A stretch of DNA of 64,000 nt, from NCBI GenBank assembly GCA_037481695.1, contig JBBFLE010000001.1, forward strand, positions 128,989 to 192,988, in the 5' to 3' direction. The translations under genes were made by a program, and so were the position numbers. Positions 10,374 through 56,704 of the stretch are shown here, piece after piece; the first letter of the stretch is position 1; each line of letters opens with the position of its first letter. A model generated the notes under the pieces. That model searched no databases and had not been told where the DNA came from. It worked only from the letters and a program-made list of their open reading frames with translations. This DNA is from a bacterium. GTDB taxonomy: Bacteria; Desulfobacterota; Desulfocorpusculales; Desulfocorpusculum.

Positions 10374-11195
10374 ATGATCCTTGTGGACAAGCAGAAATGC
10401 AAGCAGGACAAGATATGTGTGGCTGAGTGCCCCATGGGCATAATCAGAATGGAGCAAGCACAGGAAGGTTACCCCGCCATGGTTCCAGGAGGAGAGAAGG
10501 TTTGTCTTGTATGCGGCCACTGCGTGGCCGTGTGCCCCCATGGGGCCATGACCCATGAACTGGTTCCCCTGGAGGAGTGCCCCCCTTGGAGGCAGCAACT
10601 GGCTCTTGATCTGGACAGGGCCATTCAGTTCCTTCGCTCCAGGAGGTCCGTGAGAGTTTTCAAGGATAAGGAAGTGGAAAAGCAGAAAATAGAAAAACTC
10701 CTGGAAATTGCAGCCCACGCTCCCACGGGTGGAAACACCCAGAGCGTCCAGTGGACGGTTTTCACTGACAGAGAAAAGATCAGAGAGCTGGCCTCCATCA
10801 CAGTGGATTGGATTCGAAAGCTGGTGGAAGGAGGGCCCAAGCCAGGTGTCCCCGCTTACATGCCCCTCATAGTGGCCGGATGGGATGCGGGCAAAGACAC
10901 GGTGCTGCGTGGGGCACCTGTGGTTCTAATAGCATCCTGTCCTCAGGAGAATCCCAATGGAATGGTGGATCTTACTTTGGCGCTTTCTTACCTGGAGCTG
11001 GCGGCTCTCCCCATGGGGCTTGGCACATGCTGGGCCGGTCTAATGCAAAGGGCTCTCATGTTTTGGGAACCCCTCAAGGAGGCTGTGGCTCTGCCCAAAG
11101 GCCACACCAATCACTATCCCATGATGCTGGGCTATCCCAAGTTCAGGTACCACAGGCTTCCCAAGAGAAAGCCTCCTGTGGTCAACTGGAGATGA
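10374..11195 (+). CDS. 4Fe-4S ferredoxin domain fused to nitroreductase family protein
   Basis: Two CxxCxxCxxxCP motifs in the N-terminus followed by a nitroreductase-like domain. Confidence 0.75.
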   Translation: MILVDKQKCKQDKICVAECPMGIIRMEQAQEGYPAMVPGGEKVCLVCGHCVAVCPHGAMTHELVPLEECPPWRQQLALDLDRAIQFLRSRRSVRVFKDKEVEKQKIEKLLEIAAHAPTGGNTQSVQWTVFTDREKIRELASITVDWIRKLVEGGPKPGVPAYMPLIVAGWDAGKDTVLRGAPVVLIASCPQENPNGMVDLTLALSYLELAALPMGLGTCWAGLMQRALMFWEPLKEAVALPKGHTNHYPMMLGYPKFRYHRLPKRKPPVVNWR

Positions 11196-34171: not shown

Positions 34172-34173
34172 AT

Positions 34174-37823: not shown

Positions 37824-37852
37824 ATTATATCATATGCAATAGTGAGTGTCAA
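37824..37852 (-). promoter_or_regulatory. Consensus sigma70 promoter TTGACA-N17-TATAAT driving the helicase/CBASS/MTase/ATPase gene string
   Basis: Minus-strand reading TTGACActcactattgcatatgaTATAAT, about 30 nt upstream of the helicase start; AT-rich with ATATAA/TTATAT inverted repeat. Confidence 0.55.
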
Positions 37853-40904: not shown

Positions 40905-42536
40905 TTAGAAGATGCTTGGCTCCTGCCACTCGCCGAACACTTCCCTGAAAACTCCTGTCATCTCGCCCACCGTGGCGTAGGCCTTGCAGCATTCCACCAA
41001 GACTGGCATCACATTTTGGCCGGCCCGGGCCGTAGATTCCAGTTCCTTGAGAAGCCGGGTGACCTCCCTGTTGTGTCTCTCCCTTCTTACTTGTTGGAGG
41101 GCTGCTATCTGTTTCTCGGCCCAGCTCTCGTCATACTCGTGGAGCTCCACTTCCTGTAGGGTGTCCCCCTCCGTGTACTTGTTCACCCCCACCTTGACTA
41201 TCTCTCCTGACTGGATCCCCTTCTCGAACTCATATGCCTGCCTGGCCACCTCCCTTTGGATGTAACCTGTGGCCACTGCCTGGACCATTCCTCCCAGCTC
41301 GTCCACCCGCTTCATCTCTTGGAGGATCTTCTCCTCCATCTGTTTGGTGAGGCTCTCTATGAAATAGGATCCGGCCAGGGGATCCACTGTGTCGCGAAGC
41401 CCCACCTCTTCCATGATAATCTCCAATGTTCTCAAGGAAAGCAGGGCTGCTCTTGCCGTGGGTATGGTGTAGGCCTCGTCATAGGAACAAAGCGCCGTGG
41501 TCTGGGCACCTGAGAGGGCAGCTGCCAGGCCGTAGAATGCCCCTCTAATGATATTGTTCTCGGGCTGCTCCTTGGTCAGACCGGAGCCCCCTCCCCCGAA
41601 GAGACCCCTGAGGAACAGGTTCTTTTTCTCCTTGACATCCCAGCGCTCCCTGAGATTTCTGGCCCAGAGCTTTCTTGCTGCCCTGAACTTGGCCACCTGC
41701 TCCCACAGGTTTCCAAACACGTTAAGATTAAAGGAAAAACGCCCCACGAAATCGTCGGGCCTCAGTCCCCGGTTCACTAGCTCCTGGATGTAGGCATTGG
41801 CAATCTGAAAGGCATAGGCTATTTCCTGCACCGGGGTGGCCCCAGACTCCCTGATGTGATAGCCGCATATGCTTACCGGGTTGCACTGGGGAAGCTCCTT
41901 GGCCGCGTAAGCAATGCAATCCCCCACAAGTCTCACAGCAGGCTCCACAGGAAAGATCCAGGCTCCTCTGCCGATCATTTCCTTGAGTATGTCATTTTGG
42001 GGTGTGGCGCTTATGCGCTCCTTGGCAAAGCCGAACTTCTCCGCCACGGCCTGATACATGGCCAGCATCACCGTGGCTATGGCATTTATGGTAAGGCCCG
42101 TGCCTATGCGGTCCAATTGAATGCCCTGGAAGGCAATCTCGAAATCCCTCAAAGAGTCCACTGCCATTCCCACCCGACCCACTTCGCCCTCTGCCCTTGG
42201 GTCATCGGAATCCAAGCCCATTTGGGTGGGCAGGTCAAAGGCCACGTTCAGGCCTGTCTGCCCTTGTGATATCATCCACTTGAACCTCTGGTTGGTCTCC
42301 TCGGGAGTTCCGAATCCCGTGTACTGGCGTGTGGTCCAAGCACGGCTCCTGTATCCAAGGGGATGTATGCCCCTGGTGAAGGGATACTCGCCAGGATCTC
42401 CCAGGTCCTTCTCGTAATCAAAGCCCACCTCTTCCAGATCTTTAGGACCGTAAACGGGCTTCACCTTTATGCCCGACTGGTAGATCACCTCCTGGATAGC
42501 GTCTTTCGGGTCTCTTATGTATCTTGCCACTCCCAT
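40905..42536 (-). CDS. Acyl-CoA (methylmalonyl-CoA-type) mutase, large substrate-binding subunit without B12 domain
   Basis: 543 aa; ...TRQYTGFGTPEETNQRFKWMISQGQTGLNVAFDLPTQMGLDSD typical of MCM/ICM TIM-barrel domain. Confidence 0.85.
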   Translation of the reverse strand: MGVARYIRDPKDAIQEVIYQSGIKVKPVYGPKDLEEVGFDYEKDLGDPGEYPFTRGIHPLGYRSRAWTTRQYTGFGTPEETNQRFKWMISQGQTGLNVAFDLPTQMGLDSDDPRAEGEVGRVGMAVDSLRDFEIAFQGIQLDRIGTGLTINAIATVMLAMYQAVAEKFGFAKERISATPQNDILKEMIGRGAWIFPVEPAVRLVGDCIAYAAKELPQCNPVSICGYHIRESGATPVQEIAYAFQIANAYIQELVNRGLRPDDFVGRFSFNLNVFGNLWEQVAKFRAARKLWARNLRERWDVKEKKNLFLRGLFGGGGSGLTKEQPENNIIRGAFYGLAAALSGAQTTALCSYDEAYTIPTARAALLSLRTLEIIMEEVGLRDTVDPLAGSYFIESLTKQMEEKILQEMKRVDELGGMVQAVATGYIQREVARQAYEFEKGIQSGEIVKVGVNKYTEGDTLQEVELHEYDESWAEKQIAALQQVRRERHNREVTRLLKELESTARAGQNVMPVLVECCKAYATVGEMTGVFREVFGEWQEPSIF

Positions 42537-42537
42537 C

Positions 42538-42960
42538 TCACGCCTCCCTTCTGGCAGCCACCAGCCTGTTGATCCCTTCGACTATCTCCCTGAAGGGCGT
42601 TCCCCCGGGAAATACACCCTTGACGCCCATCTGGGTCAAGACCGGGATGTCCTTCTTGGGAATCACCCCTCCCACCACCACATCCACATCCTCAAGCCCC
42701 TCTTGTCTTAGCCTCTCCATGAGCTTGCGGCAAATGGGCACATGGGCCCCAGACATTATGGAAAGCCCTATGACATCTACGGACTCCTGCATCGCAGCCC
42801 TCATGATCTGCTCAATGCTTTGGTGAAGTCCTGTGTACACCACTTCCATACCTGCATCCCTGAGAGCCAGTGCCACCACCTTGGCCCCCCGGTCGTGGCC
42901 GTCAAGTCCAGGTTTGGCTATGAGCACCTTTGTCTTTCTCTCCATCACCAGCCTCCCCAC
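42538..42960 (-). CDS. Cobalamin-binding subunit of the split acyl-CoA mutase
   Basis: KVLIAKPGLDGHDRGAKVVALALRDAGMEV (DxHxxG B12-binding motif). Confidence 0.85.
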   Translation of the reverse strand: MGRLVMERKTKVLIAKPGLDGHDRGAKVVALALRDAGMEVVYTGLHQSIEQIMRAAMQESVDVIGLSIMSGAHVPICRKLMERLRQEGLEDVDVVVGGVIPKKDIPVLTQMGVKGVFPGGTPFREIVEGINRLVAARREA

Positions 42961-43078
42961 CCAGGCCTCCCTCTTGGCTCCAGGGACCAGCGCCCAAGGC
43001 GCCCGGCCCTGCTAAGGCCGCGGATTCCTCCCAAAGATTCTGGGTTTAGTCGAGCAAGCCTGGCTGAATCCTTACCTT

Positions 43079-43780
43079 TCAAACAGATATTGCTCCACGC
43101 CTCATCTCCTTGAGCACCACACCCATACCCCTGAGAATATGTTGCCTTACGATCCTCTCCACGGCTTTTTCGTCACCCTTGGCCATGGCTCTCATCATGC
43201 GCTCATGATCCCTCAGGGAAGTGCGGGGCATGGAGCCACGGGACAGAATGACCCTCCTGAAGCGATAAAAATGATCCCTCAGTTCCTGAATCATCTTGTA
43301 AAGCCGCTGGCTCCCGCTTGCCCTGTATAGCCTGTCGTGAAACTCGGTGTTGAGGGAGATGATCTCCTCTACCTGCCCTTTTTCCATTGCCACACGAGAC
43401 TTCTGGATGATTCCCTCCAGTTGGGCCATCAGTTCCTCGTCTTTGCGTCTTGTGGCCAAAACAGCAGCATAGCTCTCCAGGACGCTCCTTATGCCGAAAA
43501 TCTCCTCTATATCTTGGGCCGCGATGCGCCTGACCTCATAGCCACCGTACCTTAGTTTCTCCAGAAGCTCCTCCTGCCTGAGCTTCTGGAGAGCCTCCCT
43601 CACAGGGGTGCGGCTGGCCCCCAGCACAGAGGCCAGTCTCTCCTCCACGAACCTTTCTCCAGCAGGTATCTCCCCCCTGAGGATGCCCCTTCTCAAGGTG
43701 TCGTAAATGGAGTGGCTGAGGCCCCTTTTGCCCTTACGTCTTGAGCTCCTGGCTCTTTGAGCACCTCCCAGGTCATCCAA
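43079..43780 (-). CDS. GntR-family (FadR/FCD subfamily) transcriptional regulator
   Basis: HTH ...IYDTLRRGILRGEIPAGERFVEERLASVLGASRTPVREAL plus FCD C-terminal domain; start uncertain (ORF extends to 43897 but overlaps fixX; TTG 43780 proposed). Confidence 0.6.
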   Translation of the reverse strand: MDDLGGAQRARSSRRKGKRGLSHSIYDTLRRGILRGEIPAGERFVEERLASVLGASRTPVREALQKLRQEELLEKLRYGGYEVRRIAAQDIEEIFGIRSVLESYAAVLATRRKDEELMAQLEGIIQKSRVAMEKGQVEEIISLNTEFHDRLYRASGSQRLYKMIQELRDHFYRFRRVILSRGSMPRTSLRDHERMMRAMAKGDEKAVERIVRQHILRGMGVVLKEMRRGAISV

Positions 43781-44051
43781 ACCTGTACTGGACACCGCGC
43801 CCTCCTTTGGGATAGCTCCAGGAGATGGCTCCCGGCCGGCAGGCCACGAGGCAGGTCCCGCACTCCAGGCAGCCCGCATACTCCACCCGGATTTCATCCT
43901 GCCCGGGCTCGTAACTGTATAGCTCTGCAGGGCAAACCCTCAGACAATATCTGACCTTGCAAACCGACCTGCAAATACGGTTGTCCACAAGGATATGACT
44001 CTTTTCATCCACCTTGAACACATCAAGGGCGAGTTTCTCTTCTGTTTTCAT
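43773..44051 (-). CDS. fixX: FixX-type ferredoxin-like protein
   Basis: 92 aa; CLECGTCLVAC cluster motif; immediately follows fixC. Confidence 0.75.
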   Translation of the reverse strand: MKTEEKLALDVFKVDEKSHILVDNRICRSVCKVRYCLRVCPAELYSYEPGQDEIRVEYAGCLECGTCLVACRPGAISWSYPKGGRGVQYRFG

Positions 44052-44060
44052 GGCGACCTT

Positions 44061-45344
44061 TCAGATTTTTCTCATGTCCCACAGATCCTTGAGCCAGCCT
44101 GAAATGCCAGGGCCATGACTCATGGATCTTTTGATTGTCTTGAGATAGCCTTCCTTCTGCCCAGGACCCACTGCAAAGAGCCCCCCCAGAGCCTCGCAGA
44201 TGAGTTCGGGATACTTAGTATAAAGCCTCTTTTTGGAAAGAAGACTCTCCACTGGGGCGAATCTCTCTAGGTCCTTCATGACAAAACTATTTTTCAGCAT
44301 CTCCAGGTACGAGCCCAGGCAGGAAGCGCTGAAGTCTTTTCGCTGCCAGGCCTGGATCACTGCCTGGGAGGCAAAGTATCCCGAGGCCATGGCCATGTCC
44401 ATGCCCCTGACCGTGAGCCCCATGTTCAGGGAAAAACCAGCTGCATCTCCCACTATCAGATAACCGTCACCCACAAGATCCCTGGGAGGCAGCCTCCTGG
44501 CCTCAGGTATCATGTGGGCCCCGTATTCCACAAGCCTGCCTCCTTCCAGAAGACAGGCTATCTCTTCCCTTGCCTTGAAACTCTCCAGAAGCTCGTGGGG
44601 ACGCACCTCGGTCTGCATCAGGTCCTCCAATCGCAGGACCAGCCCCAGAGAGACGCTGTCAATGTTGGTGTAAAGAAACCCGCCTCCTGCCACACCAGAG
44701 GTGAGCCATCCCACAAAGAGATGTGCCACACCCTGCCCCTCTCCCACCCCAAATCTGGCCTGAATTGCCTCCACCGGAAGCTGGATCACCTCTTTCAGTG
44801 CTGTGGCCGCCTCCTTGGGCAGCGGAGGGGAGTGCATTCCCACCTCCTTGGAAAGCAGCCCCAACACCCCTTCTGCCAGGATCACCACCTTGGCCCGAAT
44901 CTCTTCCCCATCAGAGCGGATTCCCACCACCCGGCCCCCTTCCTTGAGAAGAGAGTCCACTTTCTTCTGCGGCACCACAAAGCCCCCGGCCTGAGCCACC
45001 CTTTCTGAAAGATGAGAGTCCAGGCGGGCCCTAAGAACAGTCTTGCTTTCATATTGGGGCTGCCCCAGTACATCGTGCCTTAGGCTCAAGGTGGAGGATC
45101 CCTGCCTGCCCATTACCGAGATCTTCTCCACCACAACCTTTCTTTCCAGGCAAAGACCCTCCAGTAGCTCGTCCACAAGCCCCCTGAGTGGGCCCAGATA
45201 GAGCCTTCCTCCGCTTAGGTTCTTGCTGCCGGCCACATCTCCCCTCTCCAGCACAAGCACCCCCAGGCCGGCCTTGGAAGCATAATAGGCGGCTGTGAGG
45301 CCAGAAAGACCGGCGCCCACCACCACCAGATCCAGCTCTTCCAT
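44061..45344 (-). CDS. fixC: FixC-type FAD-dependent ETF:quinone oxidoreductase
   Basis: LDLVVVGAGLSGLTAAYYASKAGLGVLVLERG dinucleotide fold; start at MEELDL with GGGGGAGAA RBS. Confidence 0.8.
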   Translation of the reverse strand: MEELDLVVVGAGLSGLTAAYYASKAGLGVLVLERGDVAGSKNLSGGRLYLGPLRGLVDELLEGLCLERKVVVEKISVMGRQGSSTLSLRHDVLGQPQYESKTVLRARLDSHLSERVAQAGGFVVPQKKVDSLLKEGGRVVGIRSDGEEIRAKVVILAEGVLGLLSKEVGMHSPPLPKEAATALKEVIQLPVEAIQARFGVGEGQGVAHLFVGWLTSGVAGGGFLYTNIDSVSLGLVLRLEDLMQTEVRPHELLESFKAREEIACLLEGGRLVEYGAHMIPEARRLPPRDLVGDGYLIVGDAAGFSLNMGLTVRGMDMAMASGYFASQAVIQAWQRKDFSASCLGSYLEMLKNSFVMKDLERFAPVESLLSKKRLYTKYPELICEALGGLFAVGPGQKEGYLKTIKRSMSHGPGISGWLKDLWDMRKI

Positions 45345-45537
45345 GGAATTCTCCCCCAAAAGGCTCTCTGTGCTCTCCTCACAAAAGGCATGCAATTGGA
45401 GCCAGATTCAAAAATGGCCCATACTTCACCAAAAAAACCCTCAACCAGCACCAGCCAAGAGATGAGCTCAGTTCTATCCCTGTCTTTTGCCTTTGCCCAT
45501 GGCCCGGCCAGTTTCCCCCACAAGGCCCTTGAGAGGA

Positions 45538-46512
45538 TCATGCCTCCTTCTTGAGCTCACTTATCAAGGCAGGGAGCAGCTCATGTAAATCCTCCACCAC
45601 TGCGTAATCAGCGTGCTGAAAGATCAAAGCATTGGGATCCCTGTTGACCGCCACCACCACCCTGGAGCTGTCCATGCCCATGATGTGGTGAATGGCACCC
45701 GAGATCCCGAAAGCCATGTACAGGTCCGGGGAGACCGTCTTGCCGCTCTTGCCCACCTGCTGAGAAGCAGGTCTCCAGCCGCTGTCCACCACGGAGCGGC
45801 TGGCCCCCACCGCTCCACCCAAGAGCTGTGCCAGCTCCTCCAGCATTGCAAAACTCTCGGGACCTCCCATGCCCCTTCCCCCTGCCACCACCACGGCAGC
45901 CTCCGTAAGTTCGGGGCCCGAATCGGATTCCTGAACAGCCCCCAGGAGTTCCACAGGCCCTGTGAGCTCCTCAACACTTATTCTTTCTATCTTGGCGCAT
46001 CGGTTGGCCTCCCTCCTGGAAAAGGCCCTGGGCCTCACTGCCAGCAGGTACGGAGGCGGCCCGCTGGACTCCAGTTCCACCAGGAATCTACCACCGTGGA
46101 TGGGTCTTCTGACCAGGAGCCTCCCCCCTTCCTGGAGCTCTAGGCCCGTGACCTCGGAGACCATGCTCACCGAGAGACTCACTGCAAGGCCAGGCATCCA
46201 TTGCATGCTTCTGAAGGTGCAAGGAGCCATCAAGACAAATGGCGACCACTCCCGGCAAAGCCTCTCCAGGGCCTGGATGTAGGGCAAGGCCTCAGGCTGG
46301 GCAGCCCCTTGTGTTTCCAAGACCATGATCACGTCCGGGCTCCCCTGGATCCTTTGGGCCGCCTCAGCAGCCTTGGAGCCTGCCACCAGGGCCACCAGGG
46401 GCCTTGCGCTCTTGTCAGCCAGATCCCTGGCCTTGCCCAACAACTCGTGGACAACAACCCGCTCCACGCCCTCCCAGTGCTCAACCCAAACCCATATGCT
46501 GTCTTTCTCCAT
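45538..46512 (-). CDS. fixB: Electron transfer flavoprotein alpha subunit (FixB/EtfA)
   Basis: C-terminal FAD-binding ...DLYMAFGISGAIHHIMGM... ETF-alpha signature. Confidence 0.85.
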   Translation of the reverse strand: MEKDSIWVWVEHWEGVERVVVHELLGKARDLADKSARPLVALVAGSKAAEAAQRIQGSPDVIMVLETQGAAQPEALPYIQALERLCREWSPFVLMAPCTFRSMQWMPGLAVSLSVSMVSEVTGLELQEGGRLLVRRPIHGGRFLVELESSGPPPYLLAVRPRAFSRREANRCAKIERISVEELTGPVELLGAVQESDSGPELTEAAVVVAGGRGMGGPESFAMLEELAQLLGGAVGASRSVVDSGWRPASQQVGKSGKTVSPDLYMAFGISGAIHHIMGMDSSRVVVAVNRDPNALIFQHADYAVVEDLHELLPALISELKKEA

Positions 46513-46537
46513 GGGATCCTCTCGGTCTCTTTACTGC

Positions 46538-47311
46538 TCAGAGAACCTTGGCCTCCTCTTTTAGAAGCCTTATGAGCTCTTTGGCCTTGGAACTTGCGTC
46601 TTGGCCCTGTACCAGGCGCACCGGAGGTCTGCCTGCAGGCTGTGCAAACCCTCGCAGAACCCATCTGGAGCGCGGGATGCCATCTTCAGCCGGGCTCACC
46701 TTCTCAGGCTGCAGACGCATGCCCTTCATGACCCCCTGGATGGTGGGTACCCTGGGCTCGGCCAGACCCTTTTGGGCCGATACCAAAGCAGGCAGATTGC
46801 AACGCACCTTGTCCCTGGCTCCCCCCAGGTCCCTTATCACCTCAATGGCCTGACCGTCTTGTTGGATTTCCAATGAGAGAGCAGGACCCAAATATGGAAT
46901 GCCCAAGAAACCCGCCACCATGGGGCCCACCTGAGCTGCCTCATCGTCTGTTGCCTTTCTTCCGCACAGGATCAGATCAAATTGTTCCTTGCGAAGAGCC
47001 TGGGCCAGCAACCAGGAGACCTCCATGGCATCCCTCCAGGACAGCTCGGGTCCCTCCAGATGCAAAGCCCTTTCAGCTCCCATGGCCACAGCCTTCCTCA
47101 GGCCCTCCAGGGCAGGCTTGCCTCCGTAGCTAAGGGCCGTGACCGTGGCTGAGTTCATCTTTTCCTTGATTCTCAAGGCCTGCTCCACTGCTATGGCATC
47201 AAAGAAATTTAACTCCCACTTCTCTTCCATGCGAAGCCCCGAGCCGCCTTCCAAGAGCTCTATACGAGCTTCGGCATCCGGAACTGTTTTCACCAGAACA
47301 AATACTCTCAT
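46538..47311 (-). CDS. fixA: Electron transfer flavoprotein beta subunit (FixA/EtfB)
   Basis: MRVFVLVKTVPD... ETF-beta N-terminus; 257 aa. Confidence 0.85.
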   Translation of the reverse strand: MRVFVLVKTVPDAEARIELLEGGSGLRMEEKWELNFFDAIAVEQALRIKEKMNSATVTALSYGGKPALEGLRKAVAMGAERALHLEGPELSWRDAMEVSWLLAQALRKEQFDLILCGRKATDDEAAQVGPMVAGFLGIPYLGPALSLEIQQDGQAIEVIRDLGGARDKVRCNLPALVSAQKGLAEPRVPTIQGVMKGMRLQPEKVSPAEDGIPRSRWVLRGFAQPAGRPPVRLVQGQDASSKAKELIRLLKEEAKVL

Positions 47312-47431
47312 CAGCCCTCTCCGCTACCTCTGGTTTGATTCAGCATCACCCCATGGCTCATTTGCTTTGCCTCTATGTTTCTTCTCTTGCGGCCAGCCCT
47401 TGAAACAGCCCTGGCCTCAGTGAGCGGCTCT

Positions 47432-48580
47432 TCAGAGCTTCCCCAGGATCTGCCTGCCCAGGAAGTCTTTTAAGATCTCGTGGGTACCCCCTCCGTAGAG
47501 CAAGAACCTCGCATCCCTGAAATGCCGCTGGGGAGCATACTCCTGGGCAAAACCGTTGGCTCCGTAGATCCGGGTCACCTCGTCCACCACCTTAAGGCAA
47601 ACCTCTGTGGCGAACATCTTGGCCATGGCCGCTTCGTTTCTGCTGTCCAGGGCTTGATCCATCCTCCATGCAGCATAATGCACCATGAGCCTAGCTGCCT
47701 GGATCTCTGTGGCCATCTCCGCTATCTTGGCTCGTATGAGCTGGTAGGTGCCGATGGGATTACCGAAAGCCACGCGCTTGCGGGCGTACTGAAGCCCCTC
47801 ATGGAAGGCTGCTCTGGATATTCCCAGAGCCATGGCACCGGTCATGGCGCGCACCTCGTTTAGGATCTCCCCCAGATAGACCATGCCCTTTCCCAACTCA
47901 TGTCCCAAGAAATTCTCCCCGGGTATGCGCACCCCGTCGAAGACCAGCTCTCCTGTGATGGTACCCCTGCAACCCAGCTTGTGGATCACCTGGCCTGGAG
48001 AGAAGCCTGGGCTGCCCTTTTCCACCAAGAAGAAGTTCAGCCCTTTCATGCCAGCCCCTGGCTCTGTGGTGGCCAGCACCGTGGCGAAGTCGCATATGGG
48101 CCCGTTGGTTATCCACATCTTGGTGCCCTGAATGACCCAGCCATCGCCTTCTCTGAAGGCCGTGGTGCGTGTAGCAGCCAGATCCGAACCAGACTGATCC
48201 TCGGTGAAACAGATGGTGGCTATCTTCTCACCTCTGATGGCAGGCAAAAGGCAACGCTCCTTTATGCTGGGGCTTCCGAACTTGTAAAGGAAATGGGTTC
48301 CCATGAGCGCGTTCATGATCACCGACTGGGCAAAGCCCACCGAGCCTCTGGTAAGCTCTTCGTAGAATATCATGCAGCTTACCTTGTCTGCGTTCATTCC
48401 CCCCAGCTCCTCTGGGTACCTCAAACCCAGGTATCCAAGCCCGGCGAACTCCTTCCAAAGCTGCCATGGAAACTGGTCTTTCTCGTCTATCTCCTGTGCT
48501 GCTGGAACCACCATCTTGTCCACGGCCTCGGCCACGGCCTTCTGGAAGAACTCCTGCTCTTCGGTGAGTCGGAAGTCCAT
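47432..48580 (-). CDS. Acyl-CoA dehydrogenase
   Basis: ACAD N-terminal, middle and C-terminal domains; start at MDFRLTEEQ after AAGGAGG. Confidence 0.85.
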   Translation of the reverse strand: MDFRLTEEQEFFQKAVAEAVDKMVVPAAQEIDEKDQFPWQLWKEFAGLGYLGLRYPEELGGMNADKVSCMIFYEELTRGSVGFAQSVIMNALMGTHFLYKFGSPSIKERCLLPAIRGEKIATICFTEDQSGSDLAATRTTAFREGDGWVIQGTKMWITNGPICDFATVLATTEPGAGMKGLNFFLVEKGSPGFSPGQVIHKLGCRGTITGELVFDGVRIPGENFLGHELGKGMVYLGEILNEVRAMTGAMALGISRAAFHEGLQYARKRVAFGNPIGTYQLIRAKIAEMATEIQAARLMVHYAAWRMDQALDSRNEAAMAKMFATEVCLKVVDEVTRIYGANGFAQEYAPQRHFRDARFLLYGGGTHEILKDFLGRQILGKL

Positions 48581-48656
48581 TGCTCCTCCTTGACTGTTCA
48601 TGGCGCCCAATCATCCATGCAGCCTCCTTGAGACTGCCTGGCATTGAGCTCCTTTC

Positions 48657-49853
48657 TCAAATCACCCCCATGCTCTTGAGTGCCTGCAACTCCTCACTGG
48701 ACATCCCGAGCCGCTGTCCATAGTAAAGCTCGTTGTGTTCCCCGAATCGGGGTGGGAAGCTGAGCATGCCCTGGTTCTGGCACAAGAACTGGGTACTGTA
48801 AGGCGCAGGCGCCAGCAGGATCTCCACTCCTGTGCGAGGATCCCTGGACCTAAGAAGCCTTTGCTTCACCAGGGGGTCCTCCAGAACCTCCTGGATGGAC
48901 TGGATCTTGGAAACCGGGACCGTTATGCTCTTGAACATCTCTATGACCTCTTGGGTGCCAAGGCCCTTGAAGATCTCAGCCAGACGACGGTTAAGCCTTT
49001 CCACGTCTTTTATCCTGCCCTCGTTTTTCTCGTACGCGGGGTCCTTGAGCCCCTTGAAGGGTTCCAGTTCTGTCATGGATGCCCACTGCCTGTCATTGCC
49101 CACAGCTATGTACACGAATCCATCTCTGGTCTCAAAAACCGAAACCGGAGCAAAGAACTCATGGGTGTTGCCCCTTCTGCTTATGTGGCGGCCGAATGAG
49201 CCGGTGAGCGTTATGGGGACCGTGAGCCAGGACACTGTGCTTTCGAACATGGAGAGATCTATGCGGGAGCCTCTGCCCGTCTGGGCCCTCAGAAACAGGG
49301 CCTTCATTATTAGGCCGTAGCCGTGCTCGCTGGCCCCCATGTCCGGAAGAGGAATGCCCAGCACCTGGGGAAAGCCGTCGGGCTCCCCTGTCAGCTCCAT
49401 GAGCCCTCCCCTGGCCTGCAGGATGGGATCGTAGGCTGCCTCGTTGGAATCTGGCCCGAATCCGGTTACTCCAAACCAGATGATGTCTTCCTTGATGGAG
49501 CGAAGCCTCTGGTAATCTATCCCCAGTTTTGAGTAATTCCTGGGTAGCTGGTTGGTGGCAAAGATGTCTATCTGGAGCTCTCTGATGAGCCTCTCCAGAA
49601 GATCCTGACCTTCCTTTGTGCCCAGGTTCAAAGTTATGGCCTTCTTGCCCGCGTTGATACACAGGTAGTAGGTGTTCATGCGCTCCTCGCCGAGCCTGTT
49701 CTCACCCACCAGCCTGTTGGGATCCCCGTACACCGGGTGTTCCACCCGGATCACTTCAGCACCCTCCATGGCCAGCCTGTAAGTAAGGTAAGGCAAGACC
49801 GTTGCCTGCTCCAGGGATAGCACCTTTATGTTTTCCAGTGTCTCCATGGCCAT
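48657..49853 (-). CDS. Family III CoA-transferase (CaiB/BaiF/BbsEF-like)
   Basis: MAMETLENIKVLSLEQATVLPYLTYRLAMEGAEVIRVEHP...GDPNR; start ATG 49853 after AGGGAG (the long ORF upstream has no RBS). Confidence 0.8.
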   Translation of the reverse strand: MAMETLENIKVLSLEQATVLPYLTYRLAMEGAEVIRVEHPVYGDPNRLVGENRLGEERMNTYYLCINAGKKAITLNLGTKEGQDLLERLIRELQIDIFATNQLPRNYSKLGIDYQRLRSIKEDIIWFGVTGFGPDSNEAAYDPILQARGGLMELTGEPDGFPQVLGIPLPDMGASEHGYGLIMKALFLRAQTGRGSRIDLSMFESTVSWLTVPITLTGSFGRHISRRGNTHEFFAPVSVFETRDGFVYIAVGNDRQWASMTELEPFKGLKDPAYEKNEGRIKDVERLNRRLAEIFKGLGTQEVIEMFKSITVPVSKIQSIQEVLEDPLVKQRLLRSRDPRTGVEILLAPAPYSTQFLCQNQGMLSFPPRFGEHNELYYGQRLGMSSEELQALKSMGVI

Positions 49854-49977
49854 CTCCCTCTTTACGGGTATTTCTCCCCATGAATCATGGGCTCCTTCCC
49901 AAGGAAAAGGACCCCTGACTCCAAGACCCTCCTTCGGCAAAACAGGTGATTCAAGACCCTTGACTATGCACCATTGA

Positions 49978-49990
49978 CTTTGTATACAAT
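49978..49990. promoter_or_regulatory. Palindromic candidate operator TTTGTATACAATG (TTGTATACAA perfect 10-bp palindrome) in the divergent promoter between the CoA-transferase operon and Mo-hydroxylase operon 2
   Basis: Same TGTATACAATGT 12-mer at 6299-6310 and TGTATACAA at 56694-56702, all intergenic. Confidence 0.5.
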
Positions 49991-50117
49991 GTCCGAACGG
50001 CCGGATTATAGGTTGCTCTTGGCACAGTGTCAACGGTCTCCTCTGGCCAAGGAATAGGTTTTTTTTTGAACCAAATGTGAGAGTTTCAGGAACCATGGCA
50101 AAAAATAGGGGGGAATC

Positions 50118-51140
50118 GTGAGGCTTCCCAGATTCAATTACCTTGAACCCAGGGACCTCAAAGAGGCCTTGGAGATGAGGGCTCTGTATGGAGCCCAAAG
50201 CGCTGTGCTGGCAGGTGGTACGGATCTGCTGGTCAGGATGAAGCAACGTTTGATGAAGCCATCCTTCCTCATAAGCCTCAAGAATCTCCGAGAGCTGGAG
50301 GGGATCCGGCTGGAGAACCAGGAGATGGTGATAGGTGCCAGAACCCCCATCAGGGAGGTGGTGAGATCCCCTTTGGTGCAATCCCACTTTCCTGCTCTGA
50401 TGGAAGCAATGCAAGCCGTGGGAGCTTACACCATACAGCACGTGCGAGGTACCATCGGGGGCAATCTCTGTCAGGACACAAGATGCCTTTTCTACAATCA
50501 GTCGGCATTTTGGCGCTCTGGAAGACAGGCCTGTCACAAGGCGGGCGGCAAGATCTGCTATGCCAGGGAGGGCTCGGACAGGTGCAGATCCACAAACCAG
50601 TCAGATGGTGCCACGGCCTTGATGGCATTGCAGGCAAAGGTGGTCCTCAGAAGTACCCAGGGGTTGAGGGTTCTGGGCCTGGAGGAGTTCTTCACCATGA
50701 AGGGCGAGGCCCCTTTGGACTTGGCACCCAACGAGATCCTGACAGAAATCAGGCTCCCTCTGGGCCCCTCCCAGGCAAGTAGTGCTTACGAAAGAATCTC
50801 CTATCGCTCGGCCATCGACTTTCCGGTGGCCTCTGCAGCAGCATGGATACGTAGCCAGAAGAGAACCATAGAGAAAGCTCGCATAGCGGTGGGGTGCATG
50901 GGAAATGCTCCTTTGTTGATTCTGCAGGCAGGAGAACATCTGGAAGGAAGATCTCTGGAAGACAAGCAGGCCCTGGCCAAGGCTGCCCGGGTGGCTATGG
51001 ATCAGGCTTCTGCCTTTGCAGTGGACAACGTGGGCTCCACTGTTGAGTATAGGGTAGAGATGGTCTGTGTGCTGGTGAAAAGAGCACTTGGCAGGGCCTC
51101 GGTCCGCGCTTTGGAGGCCAGCAAGGAGGAGGGTTCATGA
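50118..51140 (+). CDS. FAD-binding subunit of molybdenum hydroxylase with ~40-aa Cys-rich insertion (4-hydroxybenzoyl-CoA reductase HcrB-like)
   Basis: 340 aa versus 302 aa for the paralogue; insertion GGNLCQDTRCLFYNQSAFWRSGRQACHKAGGKICYAREGSDRC after the TIGGNL motif; GTG start. Confidence 0.75.
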   Translation: MRLPRFNYLEPRDLKEALEMRALYGAQSAVLAGGTDLLVRMKQRLMKPSFLISLKNLRELEGIRLENQEMVIGARTPIREVVRSPLVQSHFPALMEAMQAVGAYTIQHVRGTIGGNLCQDTRCLFYNQSAFWRSGRQACHKAGGKICYAREGSDRCRSTNQSDGATALMALQAKVVLRSTQGLRVLGLEEFFTMKGEAPLDLAPNEILTEIRLPLGPSQASSAYERISYRSAIDFPVASAAAWIRSQKRTIEKARIAVGCMGNAPLLILQAGEHLEGRSLEDKQALAKAARVAMDQASAFAVDNVGSTVEYRVEMVCVLVKRALGRASVRALEASKEEGS

Positions 51141-51652
51141 GTCGGGTACCCCTCAAGCTAAGGGTAAATGGTGAAGATATGGAACTACTGGTGGAACCCC
51201 ACTGGACCCTCTTGGAGGTTCTCAGGGAGGAGCTGGATCTCACTGGCACCAAGGAGGGGTGCGGGGAAGGGGTTTGTGGTTCATGTACGGTACTTCTGGA
51301 TGAAAAGCCGGTGAGGGCCTGCCTGACCCTTGCCCTGGAGGCCCAGGGCTCCAGCGTGACCACTGTGGAAGGTCTGGCTGGTGACAATGGCTTGGACCCG
51401 CTGCAGCAGTCTTTCGTGGATCACGGAGCTGTCCAATGCGGGTTTTGTACACCAGGAATGATAATGGCAGCCAAGGCCCTGCTACTGGAGAACCCCTGTC
51501 CCCAAGAGCAAGAGATCAGAAAGGCCATATCTGGAAACATCTGCAGATGCACGGGATATGCCAAAATAGTCAAAGCTATCGCAGCTGCGGCCTCAAGAGT
51601 AGGGCCCTCTTGGGAGAGCCCCCCAGCAGAAACATCTAAGGAGTCAGCATGA
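51137..51652 (+). CDS. (2Fe-2S)-binding subunit, operon 2
   Basis: CGEGVCGSCTV, QCGFCTPG, CRCTGY motifs; 4-nt overlaps on both sides. Confidence 0.85.
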   Translation: MSRVPLKLRVNGEDMELLVEPHWTLLEVLREELDLTGTKEGCGEGVCGSCTVLLDEKPVRACLTLALEAQGSSVTTVEGLAGDNGLDPLQQSFVDHGAVQCGFCTPGMIMAAKALLLENPCPQEQEIRKAISGNICRCTGYAKIVKAIAAAASRVGPSWESPPAETSKESA

Positions 51653-53940
51653 AGGACTATGCCATCATCGGCAAGCCAATGCCCAGGGTGGACACCCCGG
51701 CCAAGGTCACCGGGGAGGCCAAGTACACGGCGGATCTTAAGTTCCCCAGGATGCTGGTGGGCAAGGTGCTTCGAAGCCCTCTGGCCCATGCCAGGATACT
51801 TTCCATAGACGCATCCAGGGCTCTGGCGCTGCCGGGGGTCAAGGCAGTGGTGACAGGCCAGGATACCTTTGGCGAGAAGTGGGGGGTTTTCCGCTACACT
51901 CAGGACCAGTGTTTTCTGCCCATGGACAAGGTGCGCTACTTCGGGGAAGAGGTGGCTGCTGTGGCAGCAGTGGATGAGGACACGGCTCTGGAAGCCCTGG
52001 ATCTGATTCGGGTGGATTATGAAGAGCTTCCTGCCGTGTTTGATCCCCTTGAGGCAGTGGCGCCAGGGGCCCCCCTCATCCATGATAACTTCCCCCAGAA
52101 CATCAACATCCATGTGCGCATAGACGTGGGAGAGGTGGAGAAGGGATTCGCTGCCTCCCACCTGGTAAGGGAAGACACCTTCACTGCAGCCGAGGAGTCT
52201 TATTTCCAGGGAGAACCTTATGCAGTTGTTGCCAGGTTCGATCTGGAGGGGAATCTGGAGATCTGGATGCCCAATGCCGGACCCCACATGAAGGCCAAGC
52301 CTCTGTCCAATGCCCTGAGAATCCCTCTCCACAAGGTGCATGTGCGAAAGATAGCCATAGGCGGAGCATTTGGAGGCCGTTCGGAGATAAGCCCTGCTGA
52401 CTTCATATGTGCTCTTTTGGCCCAAAAGACCAGAAGGCCGGTCAAGATAGTGTACAGCAGGGAAGAAAACACAGTCTGCACCCGCCAAGGCCATTCCATG
52501 ATAGCCACCATCAAGACCGGAGTGGACAGCTCCGGAAGGGTTCTTGCCAGAGAGGTGACCTGTTACATGGACGGTGGGGCCTATAGCAGTACAGGGCCCA
52601 TAGCCACCAGCGTGCCTTTCCTTTGCATGGAACAGGCCTACAAGATGGAAAATGTTCGTTACAATGGCTTTCGCGTGTACACCAACAAGCCCATCCGCGG
52701 AATGATAAGAGTCCATGGAAGGGCCTTTGCGTGCGGAGTTGACACCCAACTGGACATGATAGCAGAGGAGCTGGGCTTGGATCCGGTGGATATCAGGCTT
52801 ATCAATGCCAGAGAGGCAGGAGAATATACCCCTACTCGTTCCTATGTTGCCAGCTGCGCCATGAAAGAGACCATAATTAAGGCAGCCGAGAAGGCCGGTT
52901 GGAAGCACAAAAGAGGAAAGCTTCCCAAGTGGAGGGGAATAGGAATAGGCTGCAACTCAGTGCAAACAGGATTTCCCATGGGCATCAGGGGGGGCTCTCA
53001 GGCCATAATCAAGTTCAACGAGGACGGAGGAGCTACGGTAATATCGGGTGTGGTGGACAATGGTCAGGGTAATGACAACATGCTCGTGCAGATAGCAGCC
53101 GAAGAACTGGGAATCAGGCCTGAGGACATCCAACTGGTCAATGCGGATACAGAGCTTACACCCATTGATCCCGGCGCCTATTCACAGGTCTCCACCTTCA
53201 TCGGGGGTCAGGCAGTTCGCCTTGCGGCCGCCAATGCCAGAGAGAAACTACTGGAGATCGCCTCCGAGATGCTGGAGGCCAGAGTTGAGGATCTGGTGGC
53301 CAGAGACCGAATGATCTTCGTGAAGGGCTCCCCCCAGAAAGGCCTGCCCATTCAGAAGGTCATCCGCACCGGGCTTTCCAAGGGGCGGGTGGTCACAGGA
53401 GAAGGTTCCTACTGGCCCAAGGTGGACCCCAAGAGAGAATGGGTTCAAAACCCCTATGGCCAGATGTGCGAGGCATTTTCATTTGGCACAACCATAGCCG
53501 AAGTGGAAGTGGACCCCGAAACAGGAAAGGTGAAGGTGCTAGATGTGGTGGCAGCCCAAGATGTGGGCTTTGCCTTGAACCCCCTGGTCCTGGAAGGACA
53601 GTTCGAGGGCTCCGTGGCCATGGGGGGGCAGGGGGGAATGCTCACCGAATATCACTTCTGGGACAAAGGGAGGGTCTTGAACCCCACCCAGTTGGAGTAC
53701 AAGGTTCCCATAGCTCAGGACATGCCAAGGATCCACTGCATAATAGTGGAATCCCACGACCCCAAGGGACCTTACGGGGCCAAGGAGGCAGGGATGTCCA
53801 TAGCCATGAGCGCAGCCCAGGCATACAGTGCCGCGGTTTGCAATGCCATTGGAGTCTATTTGAAAGACTATCCCTTGACCCCTGACAAGATCCTAAAGGC
53901 AATCAAGGAAAAGAAAGGCAATGTCAACAATGGGAGCTGA
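51649..53940 (+). CDS. Molybdopterin-binding large subunit, operon 2 (Hcr alpha-like)
   Basis: 763 aa; xanthine dehydrogenase-family Mo-binding domains; paralogue of 1107-3389. Confidence 0.85.
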   Translation: MKDYAIIGKPMPRVDTPAKVTGEAKYTADLKFPRMLVGKVLRSPLAHARILSIDASRALALPGVKAVVTGQDTFGEKWGVFRYTQDQCFLPMDKVRYFGEEVAAVAAVDEDTALEALDLIRVDYEELPAVFDPLEAVAPGAPLIHDNFPQNINIHVRIDVGEVEKGFAASHLVREDTFTAAEESYFQGEPYAVVARFDLEGNLEIWMPNAGPHMKAKPLSNALRIPLHKVHVRKIAIGGAFGGRSEISPADFICALLAQKTRRPVKIVYSREENTVCTRQGHSMIATIKTGVDSSGRVLAREVTCYMDGGAYSSTGPIATSVPFLCMEQAYKMENVRYNGFRVYTNKPIRGMIRVHGRAFACGVDTQLDMIAEELGLDPVDIRLINAREAGEYTPTRSYVASCAMKETIIKAAEKAGWKHKRGKLPKWRGIGIGCNSVQTGFPMGIRGGSQAIIKFNEDGGATVISGVVDNGQGNDNMLVQIAAEELGIRPEDIQLVNADTELTPIDPGAYSQVSTFIGGQAVRLAAANAREKLLEIASEMLEARVEDLVARDRMIFVKGSPQKGLPIQKVIRTGLSKGRVVTGEGSYWPKVDPKREWVQNPYGQMCEAFSFGTTIAEVEVDPETGKVKVLDVVAAQDVGFALNPLVLEGQFEGSVAMGGQGGMLTEYHFWDKGRVLNPTQLEYKVPIAQDMPRIHCIIVESHDPKGPYGAKEAGMSIAMSAAQAYSAAVCNAIGVYLKDYPLTPDKILKAIKEKKGNVNNGS

Positions 53941-54048: not shown

Positions 54049-55347
54049 TTACTCTCCGAACCTTTGGGCCACGTAGTCCAAGGCCTCTTCAATGGCTTGG
54101 GCTGCTTGCTCCAGGTCCTGCTCTGTGTGCCTGTAGCATATATAGGAGTGGTGATGGGGCGCCATGAACACGCCCCTTCTGATGAGCTGGGTGTAAAAAG
54201 CGTTTCGCTTCTCCCTGTGGGTGCCCCTGCTGTCCCTTTCAAAGGTGATGAAAAACATGGGGGCCACCCCCGAGAGTTCCGCCCCCACCGGATATCTGCC
54301 CATGAGTTCCCTTATCCTGCCCAGGAACTTCTCCCCCCTGGCCCAGATCTGCTCCAGGATCTTGTCTCTTTGGAGCACCTCGATGGTCTTTAAGGCAGCC
54401 ACGTACCCGTCGCTATTGGGGAAGAAGGTGGAAGATATAAAGAGCTTCTCTGCGGCAGCCATCATTATCTCTCTGTTGCCAGTGACCACGCTTATGGCGT
54501 AGCCATTGGCCATACCCTTGCCCAGCACAGCCAGATCCGGTTTGACTCCGTAGTATTGCTGGGCGCCCCCCAGAGCCAGTCTGAAGCCCGTGCGCACCTC
54601 GTCAAAGATCAGCACCGAGGAGTACCTGTGGGCCAGATCTCTGACCCCCTCCAAGAAGCCTGGCTTGGGTTCTTGCATCTTCTGATGAAGAGGATGGCCA
54701 AAAGGGGTCATGATGATGGCAGCAGTCTGTGCTCCATGTTCCCCCATAAGTCTCTCCAGGCCATCTAGGTCATTGTAGTGAAACTCATAGACATCTTCGT
54801 ACAGTTTCTGGGGTATCCCCCCCTTCATTTCAACACACCAGTCGTGCCAGCCATGGTATCCGCAGCGCATCACCTTTACTCTACCAGTGAATGCTCTGGC
54901 AATACGAATGGCTGCAGTTGTGGCATCCGAACCGGTTTTCAGAAAGATGCTCAACTCAGAGCAAGGCACTATTTCTGAGAGCTTCTGGGCCAGATCATTC
55001 TGGTACCTTTGGGTCAGGGAAAAGCAAAACCCCTTCTCCCTTATCTGGCGCGCCACTGCCTCATCCACTTCCTCTTCCCTGTAGCCCAGGATGATGGGGC
55101 CGTATCCACAAAGGAAATCTATGTATTCATTGCCGTCCACATCAGTGACCCGGCCTCCCTTGCCGTGATCCAGGAAAATGGGATACTCCCCTGGAATGAA
55201 GTCACCCGGTCTTCTGGCTCCCAAAACACCCCCGGGAACACAACTCTTTGCTTGCTGGAAAAGCTCCATACTCTTGCTAAGATTGAGCTTCTGGGCCTCT
55301 TTCATGGCTGACTCCATAAATTTCATTTGTCTTGGGCCAGGACCCAC
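54049..55347 (-). CDS. Class III aminotransferase (glutamate-1-semialdehyde 2,1-aminomutase-like)
   Basis: ...FLDHGKGGRVTDVDGNEYIDFLCGYGPIILGY... and PLP-lysine region; exact start uncertain (GTG 55347 or ATG 55326/55317). Confidence 0.8.
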   Translation of the reverse strand: MGPGPRQMKFMESAMKEAQKLNLSKSMELFQQAKSCVPGGVLGARRPGDFIPGEYPIFLDHGKGGRVTDVDGNEYIDFLCGYGPIILGYREEEVDEAVARQIREKGFCFSLTQRYQNDLAQKLSEIVPCSELSIFLKTGSDATTAAIRIARAFTGRVKVMRCGYHGWHDWCVEMKGGIPQKLYEDVYEFHYNDLDGLERLMGEHGAQTAAIIMTPFGHPLHQKMQEPKPGFLEGVRDLAHRYSSVLIFDEVRTGFRLALGGAQQYYGVKPDLAVLGKGMANGYAISVVTGNREIMMAAAEKLFISSTFFPNSDGYVAALKTIEVLQRDKILEQIWARGEKFLGRIRELMGRYPVGAELSGVAPMFFITFERDSRGTHREKRNAFYTQLIRRGVFMAPHHHSYICYRHTEQDLEQAAQAIEEALDYVAQRFGE

Positions 55348-55414
55348 CAGGAATAGCTTCGAAGGCCATTCTCAGGGATCCTGGTCCAAAAATAGCTTTT
55401 GTTTTCAGATGAGG

Positions 55415-56560
55415 CTATACCTCCAACATGGATGAAATGGTCTCCCTCAGATGAATCCTGGCCCCCCTCTTTATGAATTCGCCTAGGTATTTTCTGGCAT
55501 CTATACATCCTTCGGGTGCCAGGACTCCTCTTGCCTGTACCTCCCCTGCATGGAGCATCAAGGCCGCTATGGCAGCTGGCAGTCCTGTGCCGGCCGCTGT
55601 CCTCCCAACTATGTCCGCAGTGTATGTGACCTCTTTGCCTTGCCTTTCCCCCTTTACTATCACCTTCATGCCCGAAGCTTGGGGACCTTTCTCCCTGTTT
55701 TCGGGAATCTTGTTCCACATGCGAAGGGTCAGGTCATAGGGCACCACTTTGAGGCCATTTATATCAACAGGCTCTTTGCTCAGAAAGCCGGTTCGGTTCT
55801 GCTCCTTGATGAGCTGGTCCACCCAGGTGGGGATCAGTGCCCCCTTTATGATCACGTTTTTGACACCTGCGATATAGCGTGGAATGGTAAAAGGCTGAGG
55901 ATGTCCCACATAACTTATGAGACACTCCCCCAGTGGCTCCAAGAAGCGCACCGTTTCTTCGCCTGTGCCCCCAGGCACATGAACCAACTTCCCATCCAGA
56001 TATTGGGGCACCTCTCCGGTCACCATGTGAAGACTGTGGTCCCAGGCCGCACCCTGGCCCAAATCCGCTATGCTCACCACCCAATAGAGGTGTATCTCCT
56101 CGACTCTATCCAACTGATCGGCCAGGTACTTGGCAATCATGTTATTGGTGCCAGGATCTGAGCCCATTCCCGTCAGCACGGTGATGCCTGCTTTCTTGGC
56201 AGCCTCGTCTATGTCTGACTGAAAAAGAATTGCCGCAGCCTCGTAGTCGTCGCAGATATCTATGTAACTCACCCTGGCTTCCACAGCAGCCCTGGCCACC
56301 GCCACCGCTGTTTTGTAAAAGGGACCTGCACAGTTAATTACAACATCGGCCTCCCCCATGGCCTTGACTAGGGCCTCGTGATCAAACACATTGATCTTTT
56401 TTAGCTGCGCCTTGGGATTTTCTCTTAGCTTCTCATGCAACCTGGCTGGATCATCGTTGATATCCCCAAGCACAACCATGCTCACCTGATCCTGCTTCAC
56501 AAGGGTCCGGGCAGCCGCCTGGCCCATGTCCCCTGCTCCCCCAAGCACCAATGCTCTCAT
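55415..56560 (-). CDS. Saccharopine dehydrogenase NADP-binding family protein
   Basis: MRALVLGGAGDMGQAAARTL Rossmann N-terminus; 381 aa. Confidence 0.75.
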   Translation of the reverse strand: MRALVLGGAGDMGQAAARTLVKQDQVSMVVLGDINDDPARLHEKLRENPKAQLKKINVFDHEALVKAMGEADVVINCAGPFYKTAVAVARAAVEARVSYIDICDDYEAAAILFQSDIDEAAKKAGITVLTGMGSDPGTNNMIAKYLADQLDRVEEIHLYWVVSIADLGQGAAWDHSLHMVTGEVPQYLDGKLVHVPGGTGEETVRFLEPLGECLISYVGHPQPFTIPRYIAGVKNVIIKGALIPTWVDQLIKEQNRTGFLSKEPVDINGLKVVPYDLTLRMWNKIPENREKGPQASGMKVIVKGERQGKEVTYTADIVGRTAAGTGLPAAIAALMLHAGEVQARGVLAPEGCIDARKYLGEFIKRGARIHLRETISSMLEV

Positions 56561-56692
56561 GTTACCCCCTTGTGTGCTGAATTGCTCAGAGATAGCCAGC
56601 CCTAAGTAAGAGCCCTTTGCTCTCGAGCCAGCCTTTACAACAAGACTCTAGACCCCCGCCCTTGATGGAGGAATCCTCCCCAAGAATGAAAG

Positions 56693-56704
56693 TGTATACA
56701 AACT
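56693..56704. promoter_or_regulatory. Third copy (GTGTATACAAAC) ~130 bp upstream of the saccharopine dehydrogenase/aminotransferase operon
   Basis: Read directly. Confidence 0.4.

Follow-up and report, generated by a model that had tools for sequence, protein, structure and literature searches.

Regulators of the FadR subfamily of the GntR family bind A/T-rich palindromes with TKGT/ACMA boxes, and as a rule they are encoded next to the operons they regulate and control their own synthesis (Suvorova et al. 2015, PMC4494728). The GT and AC of these operators are usually separated by 3 nucleotides (nt), and by 2 nt in the GntR, HpxS, HypR, MdcY, PrpR, and UxuR groups (PMC4494728). In the site table of the same study, the Bacillus subtilis GntR (BSU40050) site is ATACTTGTATACAAGTAT, Arthrobacter regulators with the recognition helix SRTPVREAL have GGTTGTATACAACC sites, and the decamer TTGTATACAA occurs 127 times (PMC4494728). 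Atu1419 of Agrobacterium fabrum, an FCD-domain regulator of the VanR group, represses three promoters of a cluster for hydroxycinnamate catabolism, using three ATGTATACAT palindromes of identical sequence; its structures have been solved (PDB 6Z74, 6ZA0, 6ZA3, 6ZA7, and 6ZAB), its Arg45 reads a G whose mutation abolishes binding, and its zinc is held by Asn137, His141, His192, and His214 (PMC7797058). Here, we describe a 64-kb stretch of DNA (the window; contig JBBFLE010000001.1, positions 128,989 to 192,988) from a Desulfocorpusculum bacterium, in which the palindrome TGTATACA (full form TTGTATACAA) follows three promoters of catabolic operons. We consider it likely that this palindrome is the operator of a FadR/FCD-subfamily GntR repressor, most probably the 238-amino acid (aa) protein encoded at 43079-43795.

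There are exactly three copies of TGTATACA in the whole window (at 6300, 49981, and 56693), and on a hand-curated gene map all three are intergenic and upstream of catabolic operons, as a preliminary description of this DNA had proposed. The longer repeats on which that proposal was built are also real – a 12-mer, TGTATACAATGT, at 6300-6311 and 49981-49992 on the plus strand, and a 9-mer, TGTATACAA, additionally at 56693-56701 – with positions that differ by 1-2 nt from those first given (6299-6310, 49979-49990, and 56694-56702). The full decamer TTGTATACAA has a single window copy, at 49980-49989 (site 2), where the palindrome extends imperfectly to GACaTTGTATACAAaGTC; site 1 and site 3 have the versions CTGTATACAA and GTGTATACAA, respectively. 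The three sites are as follows, their transcript positions assuming an inferred start of transcription 7 nt after the -10 box.

6299..6308, minus strand: operator site 1, TTGTATACAG (minus strand), at about +4..+13 of the predicted transcript
49980..49989, minus strand: operator site 2, TTGTATACAA, a perfect 10-bp palindrome, at about +10..+19 of the predicted transcript
56692..56701, minus strand: operator site 3, TTGTATACAC (minus strand), at about +9..+18 of the predicted transcript

In dinucleotide-preserving shuffles of the window, 0.01 copies of the 12-mer and 0.04 copies of the 9-mer are expected, and no shuffle reached the observed counts; the earlier figure of 0.25 for the 9-mer was a rough estimate, correct in direction. 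Intergenic DNA makes up 5.9 kb (9%) of the window, yet it holds all three exact copies of TGTATACA; the 58 kb of coding DNA holds none, and each of the 12 one-mismatch variants in the window lies in coding DNA or on a start codon. Site 2 reads TTGT-AT-ACAA, and its second box is replaced by ACAG at site 1 and by ACAC at site 3; all conform to the A/T-rich TKGT/ACMA palindrome of FadR/FCD-subfamily operators. Assignment to a GntR/FadR-type operator is supported, but not the 11-mer T.GTA.TAC.A with a central N by which it was first described, because GT and AC are 2 nt apart (GT-AT-AC) in the motif T-T-G-T-A-T-A-C-A-A. A possible fourth site at 59131 (TTGTATGCAA) overlaps the ATG of a CoxD-like gene, has a mismatch in the core, and is not kept in the related locus L085, and we attribute it to chance.

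A near-consensus sigma70 promoter on the minus strand precedes each palindrome, with 8-14 nt between its -10 box and the palindrome:

6318..6347, minus strand: promoter 1, TTGACC-18 nt-TATATT, 10/12 consensus positions, gap to palindrome 8 nt; ACATTGTATACAG
50005..50033, minus strand: promoter 2, TTGACA-17 nt-TATAAT, 12/12 positions, gap to palindrome 14 nt; ACATTGTATACAA
56716..56745, minus strand: promoter 3, TTGACC-18 nt-TATATT, 10/12 positions, gap to palindrome 14 nt; AGTTTGTATACAC

A scan of both strands finds four sigma70-type promoters in the window that match at 10 or more of 12 positions, and three of them are directly upstream of a palindrome; the fourth (37852..37824, minus strand; TTGACA-17-TATAAT, 12/12) directly precedes the gene of an HmaA helicase. 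A sigma54 promoter considered at TGGCAC (50020) was rejected, as it has no -12 GC element and orthologues do not keep it.

The candidate regulator is encoded within the operon headed by promoter 2:

43079..43795, minus strand: candidate cognate regulator, GntR winged helix-turn-helix (wHTH) plus FCD domain, 238 aa, recognition helix SRTPVREAL (R62)

It has Pfam matches to GntR (1.7e-12) and FCD (1.9e-28), putative metal ligands at N149, H153, H197, and H219, and the segment SRTPVREA, which is invariant in 28 homologues with 44-98% identity. The open reading frame (ORF) as listed is 272 aa long and overlaps a FixX-like gene in another frame; since homologues are 238-240 aa long, the likely start is the GTG at 43795, behind a GGAGG ribosome-binding site. 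With this start, about the first 20 nt of the regulator gene (43775-43795) coincide with the end of the FixX-like ferredoxin gene. The related loci L001-L003 have the same overlap, an arrangement that suggests that translation of the regulator is coupled to that of the electron-transfer genes. No other transcription-factor gene was found near the three operons among the genes of the window. Domain matches and operon layout confirm the earlier statement that the operon behind the 49.9-kb promoter includes a GntR/FCD gene; the autoregulation suggested on that basis follows if this operon (operon 2) is one transcript.

Several features of the described systems recur at this locus. B. subtilis GntR is likewise a FadR/FCD-subfamily member; the identical decamer TTGTATACAA, with the same 2-nt GT-AC spacing, is found within its operator ATACTTGTATACAAGTAT, and the protein is an autoregulated repressor encoded within the operon it controls. 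It differs in having an 18-bp perfect palindrome, compared with 8-10 bp conserved here, a SRSPVREAL rather than a SRTPVREAL helix, and gluconate as the effector of a sugar-acid catabolic system. The operators of FadR, DgoR, LldR, and PdhR resemble those of the window in their TKGT/ACMA boxes, their palindromic dimer site, and their metabolite-released repression, but have 3 nt between GT and AC (TnGTnnnACnA) instead of 2 nt. Literature matches to the TTGTATACAA string itself are mostly Gateway att sequences.

Atu1419 is the closest homologue that has been solved with DNA. It shares the GntR wHTH and FCD architecture and the helix SRTPVREAL; its Arg45 aligns with R62 of the window protein, and its metal site (N137/H141/H192/H214) aligns with N149/H153/H197/H219. 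Atu1419 is a repressor, as the window protein would be, and it binds three 10-bp palindromes with the same 8-bp core (ATGTATACAT) at the promoters of an aromatic-acid catabolic cluster to which its own gene belongs. The variant TATATATA is TGTATACA with an altered G/C pair, the pair contacted by Arg45 in Atu1419. There are several differences: the outer base pair is A/T in Atu1419 operators and T/A here; those operators overlap the -10 or lie between the -35 and -10 boxes, whereas these are downstream of the -10; and tetrameric Atu1419 loops palindromes 109-190 bp apart, whereas the window sites are 6.7-43 kb apart and have no significant second palindrome nearby. Moreover, Atu1419 is only a remote homologue (E = 3e-17 over the N-terminal 145 residues) with a different pathway, and the effector of the window regulator is probably not its N5,N10-methylene-tetrahydrofolate (N5,N10-methylene-THF). 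A search for a second, degenerate palindrome near the three sites gave one 8/10 match only, ATGTTTACAA at 6536-6545 on the plus strand, within the hydantoinase A gene and 237 bp from the site-1 operator; it recalls the degenerate second looping site of Atu1419, and is within chance expectation (background 0.17 per 600 nt).

Orthologous operons were compared in metagenome-assembled genomes (MAGs) and read assemblies of Desulfarculaceae/Thermodesulfobacteriota, in which the regulators are 60-79% identical to the window protein. The site 2 operator is kept in all five other loci (L001, L002, L003, L087, and L005), and all of these retain a divergent arrangement of molybdenum (Mo)-enzyme and CoA-transferase genes. 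A six-way alignment of this intergenic region has a mean column identity of 49%, with invariant columns clustering on TTGACA, TATAAT, and TGTATACA; the 17-nt spacer of promoter 2 is scrambled among the six regions while both hexamers are invariant. Site 3 is kept in three of three loci (L085, L086, and L087) as TTGACC-N16/17-TTATATT followed by yTGTATACA, and the stretch between the -10 and the palindrome varies in both sequence and length (13-17 nt), a pattern predicted by a discrete protein-binding site. The site 1 operator is kept in two of three informative loci (L088 and L091). Matches to TTGTATACAA with at most one mismatch are confined in these relatives to the orthologous promoters, except for one coding copy in L003.

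Site 2 has a further conserved element:

49959..49965, strand not assigned: conserved box reading GTCAAG (minus strand) or cTTGACt (plus strand), at a fixed distance of 15 nt past the site-2 operator

Of the two TTGACT repeats reported previously for this region, both are present (49960-49965 and 49974-49979) and only the distal one, 49960-49965, is kept in orthologues. In five of the six orthologous regions (e.g. L001 3789-3794, L002 3839-3844, and L003 749-754), the GTCAAG box follows the site-2 operator at exactly 15 nt; the box is absent at sites 1 and 3. It may serve as an auxiliary half-site or, on the plus strand, as the -35 box of a divergent promoter.

The association between motif and regulator family extends beyond these close relatives. 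We examined 80 further homologue loci from Desulfobacterota, Clostridia, Bacillales, and Alphaproteobacteria, and counted TGTATACA within 7 kb of the regulator gene in 83 homologue loci: there are 29 copies upstream and 5 downstream, with 25 loci having an upstream copy and 4 a downstream one. In the intergenic DNA of the homologue loci, TGTATACA ranks first of 64 palindromes of the same composition (18 copies; mean 2.6, maximum 11), using a crude ORF mask that over-extends genes and so undercounts intergenic matches. The upstream bias and the intergenic rank support the link between the motif and the regulator family independently of the window. In some homologues TGTATACA lies 54-158 nt before the regulator's own start codon, and it often adjoins TTGACA and -10 boxes.

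Position and gene context suggest how such a site would work. As the operator is downstream of the -10 box, the protein would act as a repressor, with a dimer bound at about +4..+19 overlapping the RNA polymerase footprint and blocking open-complex formation or promoter escape; and as its gene is in the operon of the 49.9-kb promoter, it would repress itself too. Release of the repressor would come with the binding of a small-molecule effector to the FCD metal site. The sequence comparisons support the preliminary interpretation on every element that is testable in silico.

Some observations weigh against the assignment of the palindrome to this one repressor. Whole-locus counts of TGTATACA are no outlier, the signal being confined to intergenic and upstream DNA. 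In place of a single palindrome, many loci of more distant homologues have a double one, TTGTATAC-N-GTATACAA, and stoichiometry may differ. Locus L089 does not have the site-1 operator, though the promoter is retained. The SRTPVREAL helix is common to many FCD paralogues, at least one of which (L029, 38% identical) is present in a related Desulfarculaceae genome, so that a paralogue could bind or cross-talk. This last point leads to the alternative that the operator is genuine but is bound by a regulator encoded outside the window – either an FCD-type GntR paralogue or a member of an unrelated family – and that the in-operon GntR has other targets. Its helix, shared with Atu1419 and the Arthrobacter regulators, does not discriminate among paralogues, and our view is limited to 64 kb. 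However, regulator gene and operator co-occur in every orthologous operon examined, the motif is preferentially upstream of the regulator's own operon across the 83 loci, co-localization and autoregulation are usual for this family (PMC4494728), and no other regulator gene adjoins the three promoters; we regard an outside regulator as unlikely.

The palindrome could instead act at the level of promoter or transcript, as an initial-transcribed-region element, a 5′-leader RNA hairpin, or part of a divergent promoter (TATACA/TACAAT as -10, TTGTAT as -35). The motif is predicted to be transcribed (+4..+19) and palindromes can form hairpins; moreover, the divergent operons at sites 1 and 2 need promoters, and weak plus-strand hexamers overlap the palindrome. 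A leader RNA element is rejected, as the leaders fold no better than shuffles (z = 0.28, -0.14, and -1.68), the palindrome is unpaired in two of the three and no common structure emerges, and there is no Rfam match in the window. A divergent promoter accords poorly with site 3, where the motif is present without a divergent gene, and with plus-strand promoters that reach only 8/12 or lower. The -10-to-motif distance varies from 8 to 17 nt among sites and orthologues, as it would for a separate protein site, and at other homologue loci the motif is between the -35 and -10 boxes or upstream of genes, all of which makes this group of explanations improbable. Least credible by far are the readings that an A/T-rich palindrome fell three times by chance into intergenic DNA that is itself A/T-rich, or that GTATAC is recognized by a restriction-modification system. 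The window does have three copies each of other 8-mer palindromes with this composition, and a methyltransferase-bearing defense island is nearby, but those palindromes are in coding DNA and the shuffles never reach the observed counts; three of the four best promoters are each followed by a copy of TGTATACA in the same position, and the copies are kept in orthologues, so that chance is effectively refuted. GTATAC itself occurs nine times in the window, an unremarkable number with no sign of avoidance, and a restriction-modification role was discarded.

In L089 (2868-3000, ligase 80% identical), TTGACC-18-TATATT is followed by unrelated sequence in the operator's place, and TTGTATACAT is found about 100 nt inside the divergent hydantoinase gene. 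The double palindromes, 15-17 bp long, are found in L005 (3883-3899) and in L015, L018, L019, L020, L022, L024, and L025 (40-60% identity), often between or just after promoter hexamers, and suggest a different stoichiometry in those clades, such as two dimers or a tetramer. A double palindrome was also sought in the window, where the left flank matches at 4/8 positions; the window sites are taken to be single.

The targets of all three sites are minus-strand operons, headed by promoters 1, 2, and 3, respectively, with divergent plus-strand operons at sites 1 and 2 and no divergent gene at site 3:

1107..6241, minus strand: operon 1, PaaK-like aryl-acid CoA ligase (430 aa, 4949-6241) and FAD, 2Fe-2S, and Mo subunits (4-hydroxybenzoyl-CoA-reductase-like)
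40905..49853, minus strand: operon 2, family III CoA-transferase, acyl-CoA dehydrogenase, electron transfer flavoprotein (ETF) beta/alpha, FixC/FixX-like proteins, GntR, B12-binding subunit, and methylmalonyl-CoA mutase (MCM)-like mutase
54049..56560, minus strand: operon 3, saccharopine-dehydrogenase-family oxidoreductase and class III aminotransferase
6448..11195, plus strand: divergent operon at site 1, hydantoinase A/B-like and nitroreductase-Fer4 genes
50118..53940, plus strand: divergent operon at site 2, HcrB/C/A-like Mo enzyme, in a conserved divergent arrangement

Operon 2 is syntenic in L001-L003. The FAD subunit of the divergent Mo enzyme at site 2 (50118-51140, plus strand; 340 aa) has an insertion of about 40 aa within its FAD_binding_5 domain, which the paralogous FAD subunit at 3971-4879 (302 aa) does not have, and which looks similar to the extra Fe-S loop of 4-hydroxybenzoyl-CoA reductase subunit beta.

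The divergent operons at sites 1 and 2 are possibly co-regulated from the same operators, from plus-strand promoters that are weak. At site 2 the plus strand has cTTGACt, then 17 or 19 nt, then TATACA or TACAAT, or alternatively TTGTAT-18 nt-GATTAT. At site 1 the -10 box is inside a symmetric TAATATA (6317-6323), which has TTGACC upstream of it on the minus strand and, 18 nt upstream on the plus strand, a weak TTGGCT (4/6); for a promoter TTGGCT-18 nt-TAATAT the operator would sit in the spacer, and the adjoining block GAGCCAACCC is conserved. The TATAATC of site 2 is not symmetric, and site 3 has no symmetric -10 element. All plus-strand promoters score 8/12 or less, under the threshold of the scanner. 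Bidirectional promoters are reported by Warman et al. 2021 to have a symmetric 7-bp -10 element (TAnnnTA) with hexamers on both strands and a -35 box on each side.

A cluster for anaerobic indoleacetate degradation (iaa) is known from Aromatoleum aromaticum, with predicted clusters in Desulfatiglans and other sulfate reducers, and its IaaF, a decarboxylating benzylmalonyl-CoA dehydrogenase, has as its hallmark GGG in place of the catalytic YEG motif (PMC8360864). The acyl-CoA dehydrogenase at 47432-48610 (minus strand) has GGG for YEG (...LYGGGTHEIL; C-terminal end ...RFLLYGGGTHEIL), and a second one at 61529-62713 has the canonical IYEGT. Further likenesses to the iaa cluster are a PaaK-like aryl-acetate CoA ligase (IaaB-like), a family III CoA-transferase (IaaL-like), a two-subunit B12 mutase (IaaGH-like), and a dedicated ETF, as in strict anaerobes. 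Unlike Aromatoleum, in which the regulators are IaaQ and IaaR, the window adds two 4-hydroxybenzoyl-CoA-reductase-like Mo enzymes and saccharopine-dehydrogenase-like and aminotransferase genes, which are unmatched to named iaa genes. Pfam and NCBIfam matches of the pathway genes are at family level, with all NCBIfam matches below equivalog cut-offs. From its genes, the pathway encoded by the three operons, and possibly by the two divergent ones too, looks like an iaa-like anaerobic degradation of an aryl acid, of the indoleacetate type.

An acyl-CoA was suggested earlier as the effector, but nothing here supports it, and relatives of the FCD/VanR type bind carboxylates or other small ligands at the metal site. 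Indoleacetate or an acid of the pathway is no less likely an effector, and, given the iaa-like pathway, the substrate acid or a pathway intermediate would be the most likely effector; Atu1419 shows that effectors in this group can be unexpected (PMC7797058). In its fullest form, the proposal is that one FCD-type GntR repressor controls, in an uncultured lineage of sulfate reducers, five indoleacetate-degradation operons through a single 10-bp palindrome per intergenic region, that at sites 1 and 2 the palindromes are set in overlapping, opposed promoters such that one dimer shuts both directions, and that indoleacetate or (2-aminophenyl)succinate releases it. We offer this whole only tentatively and consider it rather doubtful in all its parts together; if true, strict anaerobes would have their first defined pair of regulator and operator for the iaa pathway, and the pair would be a candidate biosensor for auxin.

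Between operon 1 and operon 2 the window also contains genes of a different kind. In L001-L003, MFS and MacAB-TolC efflux genes directly follow the mutase gene; in the window a block of about 23 kb (17900-40900) is inserted between them. The block carries an Hma defense system, with the HmaA helicase (34174-37815), which has an N-terminal HTH_3 domain, the HmaB methylase (25128-29138), and the HmaC ATPase (21196-24606). HmaA and HmaB enclose a complete type II CBASS, consisting of a SAVED-endonuclease effector (32600-34348), a cyclase (31467-32603), E1-E2 (29666-31591), and JAB (29163-29663), and an MNT/HEPN pair is at 20162-20810. The HmaB/DUF1156 methylase (minus strand) is 1336 aa long compared to about 970 aa for the profile, and has a Pfam match to an IS200-like Y1 transposase at residues 488-562, flanked by its two stretches that match methylase, possibly as a result of domain insertion or fusion.

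Conceptually there is nothing new in the operator, as its core is shared with the family's founding member and with a relative whose structure has been solved. It does define a testable regulon in uncultured Desulfarculaceae-like bacteria, comprising three, perhaps five operons, one candidate repressor, and an 8-10 bp operator. The motif could be used to trace the regulon genome-wide, and the repressor-operator pair as an inducible switch or sensor. The pathway concerned is poorly studied and looks like auxin (indoleacetate) degradation in strict anaerobes, and co-regulation suggests that it also takes in genes so far unassigned, namely the saccharopine-dehydrogenase-like and aminotransferase genes of operon 3 and the hydantoinase-like genes.

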